Notes under the pieces: model-generated
What the model saw: only the letters and a program-made list of their open reading frames with translations
The model's database searches: none
What the model was told of the DNA's origin: nothing
Part shown: piece by piece, positions 24,903 to 52,565 of the stretch
How positions within the stretch are numbered: position 1 is the first letter of the stretch
How the letters are laid out: each line of letters starts with the position of its first letter
From: Escherichia coli
GTDB taxonomy: Bacteria; Pseudomonadota; Gammaproteobacteria; Enterobacterales; Enterobacteriaceae
Length of the DNA stretch: 64,000 bases
Reading direction: 5' to 3' (one strand)
Assembly (NCBI RefSeq): GCF_024502345.1
Contig: NZ_JALDNN010000001.1
Program-made: the position numbers and the translations under genes

Positions 24903-25169
24903 ATGATGAGCTTTCAGAAGATCTATAGCCCAACGCAATTAGCGAATGCAATGAAACTGGTTCGCCAGCAAAATGGCTGGACGCAGAGCGAGCTGGCGAA
25001 AAAAATTGGCATTAAGCAGGCGACAATTTCCAATTTCGAAAACAACCCTGACAATACCACGCTCACGACATTTTTTAAGATTTTACAGTCGCTTGAACTC
25101 TCAATGACACTATGCGACACGAAAAATGCCTCGCCAGAATCAACAGAACAGCAAGATCTGGAGTGGTAA
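24903..25169 (+). CDS. hipB: HipB antitoxin (XRE-family HTH)
   Basis: 88 aa from MMSFQKIYSPTQLANAMKLVRQ; stop overlaps the hipA start. Confidence 0.9.
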   Translation: MMSFQKIYSPTQLANAMKLVRQQNGWTQSELAKKIGIKQATISNFENNPDNTTLTTFFKILQSLELSMTLCDTKNASPESTEQQDLEW

Positions 25170-26491
25170 TGCCTAAACTTGTCACTTGGATGAACAACCA
25201 GCGGGTAGGCGAGTTAACGAAGTTAGCCAACGGCGCGCACACCTTTAAGTATGCACCGGAGTGGTTAGCCAGCCGTTATGCCAGACCGTTGTCACTTTCG
25301 CTGCCATTGCAGAGGGGGAATATCACCTCAGATGCCGTATTTAACTTCTTCGATAACCTGTTACCCGATAGCCCGATTGTACGTGACCGGATCGTTAAAC
25401 GTTATCATGCTAAATCCAGACAACCGTTTGATTTATTGTCAGAAATAGGGCGAGACAGCGTTGGTGCCGTAACGTTATTACCCGAAAATGAAACCATAAC
25501 GCGCCCGATAATGGCATGGGAAAAGCTTACTGAAGCCAGGCTTGAAGAAGTATTAACGGCTTATAAAGCAGATATCCCTCTGGGCATGATTAGAGAAGAA
25601 AATGACTTTCGCATCTCGGTTGCTGGCGCGCAGGAGAAGACAGCGCTGCTTAGAATAGGCAATGACTGGTGCATTCCGAAAGGAATAACGCCGACGACGC
25701 ACATCATTAAATTACCGATTGGCGAAATCAGGCAGCCCAATGCGACGCTCGATCTCAGCCAAAGCGTTGATAATGAGTATTACTGTCTGCTGCTGGCGAA
25801 AGAACTTGGGTTGAATGTTCCGGACGCAGAAATCATTAAAGCGGGAAGGGTGCGCGCGTTAGCGGTCGAACGTTTTGACAGGCGTTGGAATACTGAGCGA
25901 ACGGTTTTACTTCGCTTGCCACAGGAGGATATGTGTCAGACATTCGGTTTACCTTCATCTGTGAAATATGAATCAGATGGAGGCCCAGGCATCGCGCGGA
26001 TCATGGCGTTTTTGATGGGGTCCAGCGAGGCGCTTCGCGATCGTTATGATTTTATTAAATTCCAGGTCTTCCAGTGGTTGATTGGCGCAACGGATGGCCA
26101 TGCAAAAAACTTCTCCGTATTTATTCAGGCTGGCGGCAGTTATCGACTCACGCCATTTTACGACATCATTTCAGCATTTCCGGTCCTTGGCGGTACGGGA
26201 ATACACATCAGCGATCTCAAACTGGCAATGGGGCTTAACGCATCCAAAGGCAAAAAAACGGCAATCGATAAAATTTATCCGCGACATTTTTTGGCGACAG
26301 CAAAGGTGCTGAGATTCCCGGAAGTGCAGATGCATGAAATCCTAAGTGACTTTGCCAGAATGATTCCGGCAGCACTGGATAACGTGAAGACTTCATTACC
26401 GACAGATTTTCCGGAGAACGTGGTGACGGCAGTTGAAACCAATGTGTTGAGGTTGCATGGACGGTTAAGCCGAGAATACGGTAGTAAGTGA
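25169..26491 (+). CDS. hipA: HipA serine/threonine kinase toxin
   Basis: 440 aa from MPKLVTWMNNQRVGEL, matches recalled HipA. Confidence 0.9.
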   Translation: MPKLVTWMNNQRVGELTKLANGAHTFKYAPEWLASRYARPLSLSLPLQRGNITSDAVFNFFDNLLPDSPIVRDRIVKRYHAKSRQPFDLLSEIGRDSVGAVTLLPENETITRPIMAWEKLTEARLEEVLTAYKADIPLGMIREENDFRISVAGAQEKTALLRIGNDWCIPKGITPTTHIIKLPIGEIRQPNATLDLSQSVDNEYYCLLLAKELGLNVPDAEIIKAGRVRALAVERFDRRWNTERTVLLRLPQEDMCQTFGLPSSVKYESDGGPGIARIMAFLMGSSEALRDRYDFIKFQVFQWLIGATDGHAKNFSVFIQAGGSYRLTPFYDIISAFPVLGGTGIHISDLKLAMGLNASKGKKTAIDKIYPRHFLATAKVLRFPEVQMHEILSDFARMIPAALDNVKTSLPTDFPENVVTAVETNVLRLHGRLSREYGSK

Positions 26492-28404: not shown

Positions 28405-28693
28405 TTGCATCTTGACTGGAGAAAAGCCATCACATATTGCCGGGAATATGGCGGATTTTCGTTTAGTACGCTCCGACTATTTATAGAAAGAGATAACATT
28501 GACAATGCTGTTTTTTATTCTGTGTTGTTCGGGTTAAAAATACTTTGTTCTGAAGCATTCCCGGGTTTCAGTCTTGAAGATTATGATGATCTGGAGTTCG
28601 TCCCTCGACCGCATCTCGATCGTTGGGGAGTTTATCAGGAAATCGATAATGTTCTTGATCCTCTCGAAAAAAATATGATTTGTAATGGGCTGT
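28405..28693 (+). pseudogene. hypothetical protein whose frame runs into IS903 copy 3 (3' end truncated)
   Basis: 99-aa ORF 28405..28704 whose last residues are encoded by the IS903 end. Confidence 0.3.
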
Positions 28694-29751
28694 GGCTTTG
28701 TTGAATAAATCGAACTTTTGCTGAGTTGAAGGATCAGATCACGTATCTTCCCGACAACGCAGACCGTTCCGTGGCAAAGCAAAAGTTCAAAATCACCAAC
28801 TGGCCCACCTACAATAAAGCCCTCATCAACCGTGGCTCCATAACTTTCTGGCTGGATGATGAAGCTATTCAGGCCTGGTATGAGTCAGCAACACCTTCTT
28901 CACGAGGCAGACCTCAGCGCTATTCTGACCTTGCCATCACGACTGTGCTTGGTCATTAAACGCGTATTCAGGCTGACCCTGCGCGCTGCGCAGGGCTTTA
29001 TTGATTCCATTTTTTCTCTGATGAACGTTCCGCTACGCTGCCCGGATTACAGCTGTGTCAGCAGGCGGGCAAAGTCGGTTAATGTCAGTTTCAAAACGCC
29101 CACCCGGGGTGAAATCGCACACCTGGTAATTGATTCCACCGGGCTGAAGGTCTTCGGTGAAGGCGAGTGGAAAGTCAAAAAGCATGGCCAGGAACGCCGC
29201 CGTATCTGGCGTAAGCTGCATCTCGCCGTTGACAGTAAAACACATGAAATCATCTGCGCTGACCTGTCGCTGAACAACGTTACGGACTCAGAGGCCTTCC
29301 CCGGGTTAATCCGGCAAACCCACCGGAAAATCAGGTCAGCCGCCGCCGATGGCGCTTACGATACCCGGCTATGTCACGATGAACTGCGGCGTAAGAAAAT
29401 CAGCGCGCTTATCCCTCCCCGAAAAGGTGCGGGTTACTGGCCCGGTGAATATGCAGACCGTAACCGTGCAGTGGCTAATCAGCGAATGACCGGGAGTAAT
29501 GCGCGGTGGAAATGGACAACAGATTACAACCGTCGCTCGATAGCGGAAACGGCGATGTACCGGGTAAAACAGCTGTTCGGGGGTTCACTGACACTGCGTG
29601 ACTACGATGGTCAGGTTGCAGAGGCTATGGCCCTGGTACGAGCGCTGAACAAAATGACGAAAGCAGGTATGCCTGAAAGCGTGCGTATTGCCTGAAAACA
29701 CAACCCGCTACGGGGGAGACTTACCCGAAATCTGATTTATTCAACAAAGCC
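28694..29751 (+). mobile_element. IS903-type insertion sequence, copy 3, 1058 bp, frameshifted transposase, no target duplication
   Basis: Extra T (gtgcttggtcatt versus gtgctggtcatt) splits the transposase into ORFs 28726..28959 and 28856..29695; flanks atgggctgt and cctgctgga differ. Confidence 0.9.
28726..29695 (+). pseudogene. IS903-type transposase, frameshifted
   Basis: Two overlapping ORFs together cover the transposase. Confidence 0.85.
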
Positions 29752-32074: not shown

Positions 32075-33270
<1,196 letters not shown>

Positions 33271-33439: not shown

Positions 33440-33940
33440 TTAGTGATAGCGATCGATCACGCCAACCAGATAGTGGTCGGTTTGCTGCATGTTGATGCCC
33501 GCTTTTTTAGCGCTGCGGACTTCATCCAGAATGATTTGCAACAGCGTCCCGTCCACGATTTCCTCTTTTCTGTATCGCTTCAGGAAGTTAATCGCTGACT
33601 TATCGTTTGCTGCCTGGGCGTCTTCCGTCAAAGAGGTCAGCGCATTAATGCGCTTCTGGTAATCGCTTACCGTCTGCTCAAACAGATCTTCCAGCGTGGA
33701 AAATTCACCGCACCGGGCGTGTTGCTCCTGTAACACCGGCGTGGCGCCGCTCTGTTTGATGTATTCGTACATGCGCATCATTTGCGTCACCGTATTTTGC
33801 GCCTGATGACGCAAAAATAGTGCGGTGCCATTAAGGCTATTCTCGCTGCACCTCTGGCTGAGCTGAAGATACAAATTTGAGGTATAAAACTCCTGATTCA
33901 TTTGCGCATTCAGTTTTTGAACTATTCCGCTAGCGATCAT
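33440..33940 (-). CDS. ferritin-like protein (FtnB/YecI-like paralog)
   Basis: 166 aa; NAQMNQEFYTSNLYLQLS and TQMMRMYEYIK resemble recalled E. coli FtnB at roughly half identity; hairpin terminator downstream. Confidence 0.7.
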   Translation of the reverse strand: MIASGIVQKLNAQMNQEFYTSNLYLQLSQRCSENSLNGTALFLRHQAQNTVTQMMRMYEYIKQSGATPVLQEQHARCGEFSTLEDLFEQTVSDYQKRINALTSLTEDAQAANDKSAINFLKRYRKEEIVDGTLLQIILDEVRSAKKAGINMQQTDHYLVGVIDRYH

Positions 33941-34358
33941 AGGACTTCCTTATTTCTTGTCATCTCAGAAAACGGTCACTCTTCGAAAAAATAACCAGAA
34001 TAAAAGCGATTCTTTCGCTTTTTTTATTGCGCCTGGTTACGCAGTCATATTCATTTTAAGTCGGGATGCTCCTTATTTAAATATCCAACCCTACTATCGC
34101 ATTTCTATCTGGCATTATTCTGTGATGGTGTTTCGATATTCACACTCCCTGTGCCAATCCTTTCTTATCGACAGTAGGAAACTTCCTCCGGCTATTCTGC
34201 TGAACACGATTAGGGGCACTGTTGCAAAGTTAGCGATGAGGCAGCGTTTTGTCTTATTCAAAGGCCTTACATTTCAAAAACTCTGCTTACCAGGCGCATT
34301 TCGGGTGATGCTGCCAACTTACTGATTTAGTGTATGATGGTGTTTTTGAGGTGCTCCA

Positions 34359-34634
34359 GTGGCTTCTGTTTCTATCAGCTGTCCCTCCTGTTCAGCTACT
34401 GACGGGGTGGTGCGTAACGGCAAAAGCACCGCCGGACATCAGCGCTATCTCTGCTCTCACTGCCGTAAAACATGGCAACTGCAGTTCACTTACACCGCTT
34501 CTCAACCCGGTACGCACCAGAAAATCATTGATATGGCCATGAATGGCGTTGGATGCCGGGCAACCGCCCGCATTATGGGCGTTGGCCTCAACACGATTTT
34601 CCGCCATTTAAAAAACTCAGGCCGCAGTCGGTAA
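34359..34634 (+). CDS. insA: IS1 InsA
   Basis: 91 aa [30 protein letters not shown]... Confidence 0.9.
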
Positions 34635-35056
34635 CCTCGCGCATACAGCCGGGCAGTGACGTCATCGTCTGCGCGGAAATGGACGAACAGTGGGGATACG
34701 TCGGGGCTAAATCGCGCCAGCGCTGGCTGTTTTACGCGTATGACAGGCTCCGGAAGACGGTTGTTGCGCACGTATTCGGTGAACGCACTATGGCGACGCT
34801 GGGGCGTCTTATGAGCCTGCTGTCACCCTTTGACGTGGTGATATGGATGACGGATGGCTGGCCGCTGTATGAATCCCGCCTGAAGGGAAAGCTGCACGTA
34901 ATCAGCAAGCGATATACGCAGCGAATTGAGCGGCATAACCTGAATCTGAGGCAGCACCTGGCACGGCTGGGACGGAAGTCGCTGTCGTTCTCAAAATCGG
35001 TGGAGCTGCATGACAAAGTCATCGGGCATTATCTGAACATAAAACACTATCAATAA
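34553..35056 (+). CDS. insB: IS1 InsB reading frame (expressed as InsAB' by frameshifting)
   Basis: 167-aa [24 protein letters not shown]... overlapping insA. Confidence 0.9.
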
Positions 35057-35066
35057 GTTGGAGTCA

Positions 35067-35747
35067 TTACCGCATTTCGCCCAGGGGATCACCATAATAA
35101 AATGCTGAGGCCTGGCCTTTGCGTAGTGCACACATCACCTCAATACCTTTGATGGTAGCGTAAGCCGTCTTCATGGATTTAAATCCCAGCGTGGCGCCGA
35201 TTATCCGTTTCAGTTTGCCATAATCGCATTCAATCACGTTGTTCCGGTACTTAATCTGTCGGTGTTCAACGTCAGACGGGCACCGGCCTTCGCGTTTGAG
35301 CAGAGCAAGCGCGCGACCATAGGCGGGCGCTTTATCCGTGTTGATGAATCGCGGGATCTGCCACTTCTTCACGTTGTTGAGGATTTTACCCAGAAACCGG
35401 TATGCAGCTTTGCTGTTACGACGGGAGGAGAGATAAAAATCGACAGTGCGGCCCCGGCTGTCGACGGCCCGGTACAGATACGCCCAGCGGCCATTGACCT
35501 TCACGTAGGTTTCATCCATGTGCCACGGGCAAAGATCGGAAGGGTTACGCCAGTACCAGCGCAGCCGTTTTTCCATTTCAGGCGCATAACGCTGAACCCA
35601 GCGGTAAATCGTGGAGTGATCGACATTCACTCCGCGTTCAGCCAGCATCTCCTGCAGCTCACGGTAACTGATGCCGTATTTGCAGTACCAGCGTACGGCC
35701 CACAGAATGATGTCACGCTGAAAATGCCGGCCTTTGAATGGGTTCAT
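35067..35747 (-). CDS. tnpA: IS26 transposase, C-terminally truncated by the IS1 insertion
   Basis: MNPFKGRHFQRDIILWAVRWY...GDPLGEMR then stop; the recalled native protein continues LVSRVFEM. Confidence 0.85.
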   Translation of the reverse strand: MNPFKGRHFQRDIILWAVRWYCKYGISYRELQEMLAERGVNVDHSTIYRWVQRYAPEMEKRLRWYWRNPSDLCPWHMDETYVKVNGRWAYLYRAVDSRGRTVDFYLSSRRNSKAAYRFLGKILNNVKKWQIPRFINTDKAPAYGRALALLKREGRCPSDVEHRQIKYRNNVIECDYGKLKRIIGATLGFKSMKTAYATIKGIEVMCALRKGQASAFYYGDPLGEMR

Positions 35748-35810
35748 GTGCAGCTCCATCAGCAAAAGGGGATGATAAGTTTATCACCACCGACTATTTG
35801 CAACAGTGCC

Positions 35811-51318: not shown

Positions 51319-51507
51319 TAAATCCCTGAAAATTTCAGCCTGATCGTCCAAAAGGTCGCAGTTTAAACAATGCGACCTTTATACCGGATAATTTAGCATG
51401 TTGAACCGATTTTCGGAGACTCTCTATCGCGCTGGACGGCTCTGCATGTACATTGTCGCCTGAAAAATAATATCAGGGATATAAATAGCCTGTTAATACC
51501 TCGTTTC

Positions 51508-52565
51508 GGCTTTGTTGAATAAATCAGATTTCGGGTAAGTCTCCCCCGTAGCGGGTTGTGTTTTCAGGCAATACGCACGCTTTCAGGCATACCTGCTTTC
51601 GTCATTTTGTTCAGCGCTCGTACCAGGGCCATAGCCTCTGCAACCTGACCATCGTAGTCACGCAGTGTCAGTGAACCCCCGAACAGCTGTTTTACCCGGT
51701 ACATCGCCGTTTCCGCTATCGAGCGACGGTTGTAATCTGTTGTCCATTTCCACCGCGCATTACTCCCGGTCATTCGCTGATTAGCCACTGCACGGTTACG
51801 GTCTGCATATTCACCGGGCCAGTAACCCGCACCTTTTCGGGGAGGGATAAGCGCGCTGATTTTCTTACGCCGCAGTTCATCGTGACATAGCCGGGTATCG
51901 TAAGCGCCATCGGCGGCGGCTGACCTGATTTTCCGGTGGGTTTGCCGGATTAACCCGGGGAAGGCCTCTGAGTCCGTAACGTTGTTCAGCGACAGGTCAG
52001 CGCAGATGATTTCATGTGTTTTACTGTCAACGGCGAGATGCAGCTTACGCCAGATACGGCGGCGTTCCTGGCCATGCTTTTTGACTTTCCACTCGCCTTC
52101 ACCGAAGACCTTCAGCCCGGTGGAATCAATTACCAGGTGTGCGATTTCACCCCGGGTGGGCGTTTTGAAACTGACATTAACCGACTTTGCCCGCCTGCTG
52201 ACACAGCTGTAATCCGGGCAGCGTAGCGGAACGTTCATCAGAGAAAAAATGGAATCAATAAAGCCCTGCGCAGCGCGCAGGGTCAGCCTGAATACGCGTT
52301 TAATGACCAAGCACAGTCGTGATGGCAAGGTCAGAATAGCGCTGAGGTCTGCCTCGTGAAGAAGGTGTTGCTGACTCATACCAGGCCTGAATAGCTTCAT
52401 CATCCAGCCAGAAAGTTATGGAGCCACGGTTGATGAGGGCTTTATTGTAGGTGGGCCAGTTGGTGATTTTGAACTTTTGCTTTGCCACGGAACGGTCTGC
52501 GTTGTCGGGAAGATACGTGATCTGATCCTTCAACTCAGCAAAAGTTCGATTTATTCAACAAAGCC
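51508..52565 (-). mobile_element. IS903-type insertion sequence, copy 4, 1058 bp, same frameshift as copy 3, intact 9-bp target duplication
   Basis: Flanks cctcgtttc (51499..51507) and cctcgtttc (52566..52574); same extra base as copy 3. Confidence 0.9.
51564..52533 (-). pseudogene. IS903-type transposase, frameshifted
   Basis: ORFs 51564..52403 and 52300..52533. Confidence 0.85.

Follow-up and report, generated by a model that had tools for sequence, protein, structure and literature searches.

IS26 is among the chief organisers of the antibiotic-resistance regions of Gram-negative bacteria, and it is useful to know which of the IS26 copies found on plasmids can still act. Its transposase, Tnp26, acts preferentially in cis (PMC8477213, PMC7885326). 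In the mutants IS26-FS-L and IS26-FS-R of Harmer et al. 2014 (PMC4196232), which have intact IS26 ends and a frameshifted tnp26, copy-in cointegrates were undetectable, and pairing of a frameshifted copy with an intact IS26 gave targeted cointegrates that were about 30-fold rarer and kept their target specificity. Nesting within IS26 has also been described, as in IS15, where one IS26 variant lies within another and the outer element keeps both terminal repeats (PMC6807381). The locus considered here, an IS1 within an IS26, is an ordinary nested insertion of an already known kind. It shares the nesting and the retained outer repeats with IS15, and the combination of intact IS26 ends and a damaged transposase gene with the frameshift mutants, but it departs from both. 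The inner element of IS15 is an IS26 variant with a tnp26 of its own, whereas here it is an IS1, from an unrelated family, and the sole tnp26 is truncated. The frameshift mutants encode a severely truncated protein (30 aa in FS-L), whereas the copy described here keeps 226 of 234 residues and has 768 bp of foreign DNA that breaks the identity 89 bp from one end.

In the window, meaning the whole 64-kb stretch of DNA that was analysed, the IS26 spans 34215-35810 and measures 1,596 bp with the IS1 inside it. The first-pass annotation had already placed an IS1 within an IS26 here; its right-hand boundaries for both elements stand, while the starts move by one base, to 34215 instead of 34216 for IS26 and to 34304 instead of 34305 for IS1. 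The 14-bp terminal repeats of IS26 (GGCACTGTTGCAAA) are intact, as had been said of them: both copies, at 34215-34228 (+) and 35797-35810 (-), are exact, and the window has no third one (0.03 copies would be expected by chance). The scan for this repeat thus revealed no second IS26 within the 64 kb, so that a helper copy, if there is one, would be located elsewhere in the cell. IS1 separates an arm of 89 bp (34215..34303, - strand), which contains the first repeat and the orphaned 3' end of tnp26, from an arm of 739 bp (35072..35810, - strand), which includes the target duplication and ends in the second repeat. It had been described as sitting in the left end of IS26, which is true in the orientation of the window only: the IS26 end 89 bp away from IS1 is the one downstream of tnp26, and it is the right end under the convention that draws tnp26 from left to right.

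The lengths add up (89 + 768 + 739 = 1,596 bp = 820 + 768 + 8), and deletion of IS1 and one repeat copy in silico restores exactly an 820-bp IS26. Alignment to references, which had been proposed as a check, confirmed this structure, with three differences in IS26 and two in IS1. The restored element is colinear with the IS26 of NZ_CP034659.1 and identical to it at 817 of 820 bases, the remainder being three substitutions. Its 14-bp repeats, its length and a nucleotide identity above 95%, the ISfinder isoform rule as quoted in PMC6807381, place it in IS26. Without its IS1 it thus resembles common IS26 (IS6/IS26 family) in its 820 bp, in its terminal repeats and in 99.6% of its bases, and differs in carrying H176Y and in being interrupted, with a product of 226 aa rather than 234 aa. 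An 8-bp duplication around an IS26 is expected only after copy-in followed by resolution. None surrounds the IS26::IS1 composite, the flanks of which differ (CGATTAGG versus GAGCAGAT). Such differing flanks are usual for IS26 copies that joined later rearrangements (PMC7885326), and the missing duplication is no argument against membership in IS26.

The inner element is a complete IS1B-type IS1 of 768 bp on the + strand (34304..35071). Its 23-bp ends, IRL at 34304-34326 (+) and IRR at 35049-35071 (-), show 0 mismatches to the consensus and are identical to those of IS1A, IS1B and IS1C of E. coli K-12. Exactly two such ends occur in the window, against 0.00 expected by chance, and this is therefore its single IS1. 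Over the 768 nt it differs from K-12 IS1B/IS1C at two (positions 127 and 704 of IS1, compared with IS1B) and from IS1A at seven. The insA gene (34359-34634, 91 aa) is intact and reads rightwards, convergent with tnp26; the A6C motif for -1 frameshifting, TTAAAAAAC, starts at 34608, and the insB' frame runs intact to 35056. InsB' scores 143.8 bits against the NCBIfam IS1 transposase model (cut-off 100). In its length and ends, its insA/A6C/insB' layout and its 8-bp duplication the copy belongs to the IS1 family and matches K-12 IS1B/IS1C, from which it is set apart by the 2 nt that separate it from IS1B and by its target, another insertion sequence. To judge from these features, it looks fully functional.

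Target duplications of either 8 or 9 bp are documented for IS1 (PMC12428005). Here, GCATTTCG directly abuts IS1 on both sides, at 34296..34303 and at 35072..35079, and the chance of an 8-bp match at these fixed positions is 1/65,536 (4^8). The first-pass annotation had named this 8-bp repeat and had allowed for 9 bp if one boundary base were counted as target. That option would assign the last base of IS1, a C, to the target and is not tenable: the K-12 references IS1A, IS1B and IS1C all end in ...CATTACC, so that the last C (35071) belongs to IS1 and the duplication is 8 bp.

IS1 entered tnp26 between bases 1 and 2 of codon 226. The truncated gene (35067..35747, - strand, ATG at 35745-35747) has 226 codons. 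The codon CGG of R226 (35070-35072) straddles the right IS1/IS26 junction (GGAGTCATTACCGCATTTCGCCCAGGGG), and the right end of IS1, which contributes ...GG TAA to the gene, retains Arg226 and supplies a stop directly after it (TAA, 35067-35069). The product consequently has 226 aa against the native 234, and residues 227-234 (LVSRVFEM) are lost; the codons for them, together with the native stop, now lie beyond IS1, at 34267-34293. Replacement of a native LVSRVFEM by an immediate stop had been proposed, and a reference ending at GEMR would have spoken against it. The reference Tnp26 (234 aa; IS26 copy annotated WP_001067855.1) instead ends in LVSRVFEM (...GEMRLVSRVFEM / ...GDPLGEMRLVSRVFEM), whereas the protein in the window ends in ...GEMR followed by TAA. 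This protein scores 269.5 bits against the NCBIfam IS6 transposase model (cut-off 125), which covers residues 3-209, and it has D78, D138, E173 and K180.

All three substitutions relative to common IS26 are G>A on the + strand and lie in the 739-bp arm, at IS26 positions 142 (35132; R206C), 167 (35157; synonymous) and 232 (35222; H176Y). H176Y replaces the His of the E-DH---K signature of the bacterial family (PMC6807381), three residues after the catalytic E173. By exact-protein look-up, an uninterrupted IS26 with the same 234-aa H176Y/R206C protein was found, as one copy, in contig LLYD01000067.1 of GCA_001484235.1. It is 100% identical to window positions 35071-35810 over 740 bp, and its sole difference from the restored IS26 is at position 32, with C in place of G. 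As this uninterrupted version exists elsewhere, the coding changes are older than the IS1 insertion. Relatives in PLSDB form a series, with 32C/167A (no amino-acid change) and 32C/142A/167A (R206C). The latter fits the published description of IS15-delta-1, which differs from IS26 by 3 bp and one amino acid (PMC6807381), the match being one of description and not base by base. Position 32 is C in all eight other sampled copies with variant bases, from eight loci, and G in the window alone, where the 89-bp arm has the base of common IS26. This 32G could stem from a point mutation or from an exchange with a common IS26, and a single nucleotide does not decide between the two.

S108Y, by itself or combined with Y81N and G86R, is found in further derivatives of the 32C/142A/167A type (NZ_CP022155.1, CP056626.1, NZ_CP026237.1, AP023265.1, NZ_CP084832.1), most of which share one site on the Dps/Hha side; in the family alignment G86 is invariant and Y81 nearly so. 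The sub-lineage seems to be undergoing decay where it sits, an unusual course for an element as uniform as IS26 normally is.

On the side of the 89-bp arm, the composite adjoins a non-heme ferritin-like gene (33440-33940). NZ_CP034659.1, with an intact and canonical IS26, and CP037444.1, whose IS26 is likewise intact, show the ferritin-side flank joined to IS26 at exactly this base. Since the same junction is found elsewhere with an uninterrupted IS26, IS26 was at this site before IS1. The other flank is an IS3-family element (35811-~36934) whose 5' end is truncated by IS26, and the junction between IS26 and this remnant is spanned by no PLSDB record. Taken together, one simple transposition accounts for the locus: an intact IS1B-type IS1 entered a resident IS26, duplicating 8 bp of target, at a time when this IS26 was already the variant with R206C, H176Y and one silent change. 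The IS1 right end stops translation right after Arg226, leaving a Tnp26 without residues 227-234 that is probably impaired, a composite that can probably serve as a partner only, and a putatively functional IS1. A probability of about 0.9 is assigned to this account as a whole.

How far Tnp26 would be impaired was judged from its relatives and from a structural model. A search of 1.84 billion cluster representatives gave 18 full-length homologues (40-65% identity), which were aligned with Tnp26 and the copy in the window. Residue 176 is His in 17 of the 18, while R206 is variable. All 18 extend at least six residues past the R226 column, and the deleted segment has hydrophobic residues at 227 (17/18), 228 (16/18), 232 (16/17) and 234 (16/17). 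In an AlphaFold2 model of Tnp26 (mean pLDDT 89.6), residues 221-231 form a helix, with a mean pLDDT of 85 over 221-230, and the truncation takes away half of it. As H176 is nearly invariant and half of a conserved C-terminal amphipathic helix is gone, the encoded Tnp26 is somewhat more probably impaired or dead than working, to the extent that conservation and a predicted fold can indicate. The C-terminal tail of Tnp26 has been called extended, with 'no identifiable functional motifs' (Pong et al. 2021, PMC8477213), and it could be dispensable, as the NCBIfam IS6 model ends at residue 209. The conserved C-terminal helix is an unstudied part of Tnp26, and the present case prompts testing it. 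Databases also hold Tnp26 fusions that are native up to residue 220-229 and continue into unrelated sequence; these represent other events at the last tnp26 codons or chimeric assemblies.

The consequences for mobility can be framed by the published genetics. Intact repeats had led the first-pass annotation to suggest that the element could still be mobilised in trans. This is plausible in so far as an intact IS26 could, by analogy with the frameshift mutants, pair with it or target it at an efficiency about 30-fold lower (PMC4196232), and it has to be qualified by the cis preference of Tnp26. Since neither the terminal repeats nor the N-terminal DNA-binding domain is damaged, the composite of 1,596 bp should still be usable, at reduced efficiency, in targeted conservative or homologous recombination with an intact IS26 at some other place in the cell. 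Its identity with common IS26 extends over 89 bp at one end and over 739 bp, with three mismatches, at the other. PMC7885326 proposes a branch-migration step, which the break at 89 bp would be expected to affect. Movement of the composite by itself seems unlikely, and this IS26 copy is probably a disabled remnant that serves only as a recombination partner.

An alternative in which the truncated variant Tnp26 is fully active, so that IS26::IS1 forms an autonomous 1.6-kb composite insertion sequence similar to IS15, would agree with the intact D78, D138, E173 and N-terminal DNA-binding domain, with a tail that is said to be without functional motifs (PMC8477213) and is not covered by the NCBIfam IS6 core model, and with the precedent of nested IS15 (PMC6807381). 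Continued mobility would, moreover, more easily account for the occurrence of the H176Y variant both in the window and in GCA_001484235.1, two contexts that are unrelated. It is nevertheless an unlikely reading, as the His at 176 is so rarely replaced among the homologues and the deleted residues follow a conserved hydrophobic pattern in a confidently predicted helix; nor does the composite have a flanking 8-bp duplication of its own, and the collections searched contain no other copy of it that would point to spread. A shortened H176Y protein that keeps the repeat-binding N-terminal domain might instead act as an inhibitor of other IS26 copies in trans. Together with the idea that the mosaic of single-nucleotide variants (32 common; 142, 167 and 232 variant) was left behind by an exchange at the end that IS1 interrupts, this is given only a very slim chance. 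In that second idea, the end with 89 bp of identity could still be used in Tnp26-mediated targeted conservative, or homologous, recombination, and, if true, it would bear, as a natural example, on how little identity the reaction requires, which is listed as an open question (PMC7885326).

More generally, the two IS26 arms may derive from different copies, recombined either before IS1 arrived or afterwards through exchange of the 89-bp arm. The 32G of this arm is that of common IS26, which occupies the same ferritin-side junction in NZ_CP034659.1, while the eight other sampled copies with 142A and/or 167A carry 32C; PMC7885326 also mentions, as an unpublished observation, gene conversion close to an IS26 end in the course of the targeted conservative reaction. 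However, this evidence is a single nucleotide that a point mutation explains equally well, and the exact 8-bp duplication and the perfect restoration of 820 bp show that IS1 entered an intact IS26. An exchange of arms, itself improbable, would thus come in addition to the IS1 insertion and not in its place. Lastly, the arrangement might be thought a chimeric join of repeats made during assembly, as IS26 and IS1 are multi-copy elements that often break assemblies, and many contigs end inside IS26 at one point. An exact 8-bp repeat at both ends of IS1 within a perfectly colinear 820-bp IS26 is not what a misjoin would yield, and both junctions are base-perfect against the references, which leaves an artefact scarcely credible. 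Simple insertion of IS1 into a variant IS26 is therefore the reading retained here.

A search for the same junction in other genomes and plasmids, which had been suggested with a view to a lineage marker, found none in the PLSDB, E. coli, GTDB or JGI sets. A 50-bp query made of 25 bp from either side, so short that the 28-bp BLAST seed has to cross the junction, had no spanning match in 72,556 PLSDB plasmids, nor did 5,426 complete E. coli genomes yield one. The best match to it (89% over 44 bp) fell in a region without annotated IS26 and was set aside as a chance match to the flank. An exact 30-mer of the junction gave 0 hits in 100,044 GTDB representative genomes and 0 in JGI metagenome contigs, exact-protein look-ups returned no record of 226-aa H176Y/R206C or R206C-only products, and literature phrase searches brought up no relevant report of IS26 interrupted, disrupted or truncated by IS1. 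As far as shown by the collections searched, the junction is private to this record. The 30-mer ACCAGGCGCATTTCGGGTGATGCTGCCAAC can serve as a practical marker for tracking the lineage, the junctions being unique in those collections.

Longer queries gave a different picture at face value. The 1,596-bp composite (in PLSDB) and a 120-bp junction query (in PLSDB and the E. coli genomes) had hundreds of apparent matches with 100% coverage; each listed row had been joined from separate pieces of IS26 and IS1, two to four in number, that extended over at least 183 bp of the record, and did not represent the junction. A 226-aa Tnp26 of canonical sequence is likewise listed in 161 blocks of the collection, and it was rejected as evidence of the junction, since all eight loci inspected are native IS26 without an IS1 insertion and end in ...ATGCGCC at a contig end or at Ns. 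Many public draft assemblies break at this identical base inside IS26 (...GAAATGCGCC), which creates an artefactual 226-aa Tnp26 that mimics truncation.

The surroundings of the composite are an IS-rich mosaic of the kind found in large Klebsiella and E. coli plasmids. It includes an IS5-family (ISKpn26-like) transposase gene (32143-33123), and five IS5-family copies of ~1.05 kb are distributed in both orientations over the window (~16832-17894, 20243-21303, 28690-29751, 51507-52565 and 57362-58418). These five are ~94% identical to copies in CP037444.1 and NZ_CP022155.1. The IS3-family remnant next to the composite contains an orfA without a start (35811-36053), an A7G-type frameshift site at ~36040 and orfB (36254-36895), and its closest relative, at 94%, is on a Pantoea dispersa plasmid. 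Directly after it follow two tandem IS110-family elements on the - strand (36935-38316 and 38370-39761), respectively ~91% and ~80% identical to an IS110-family element of NZ_CP034659.1 that directly adjoins an IS26. Further along, an IS2-like element (in the region 41115-43195; orfA 41961-42356, orfB 42314-43195) adjoins a gene for an FtrA/AraC-type regulator (41115-41885) that matches only positions 73-325 of a 327-position family model; this regulator gene may have lost its 5' end when the IS2-like element inserted. A partial IS110-family transposase ORF and a Tn3-family transposase gene are also present. About half of the stretch 9000-26600 matches, at 97-99%, E. coli chromosome-sized records (4.8-4.9 Mb) that are filed in PLSDB as plasmids. 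A fragment of an ECSE_1600-family autotransporter (21215-24694) is located here, the start of its ORF at 21215 adjoining the IS5-family copy at ~20243-21303, and it is followed by a HipA-like toxin gene (25112-26491).
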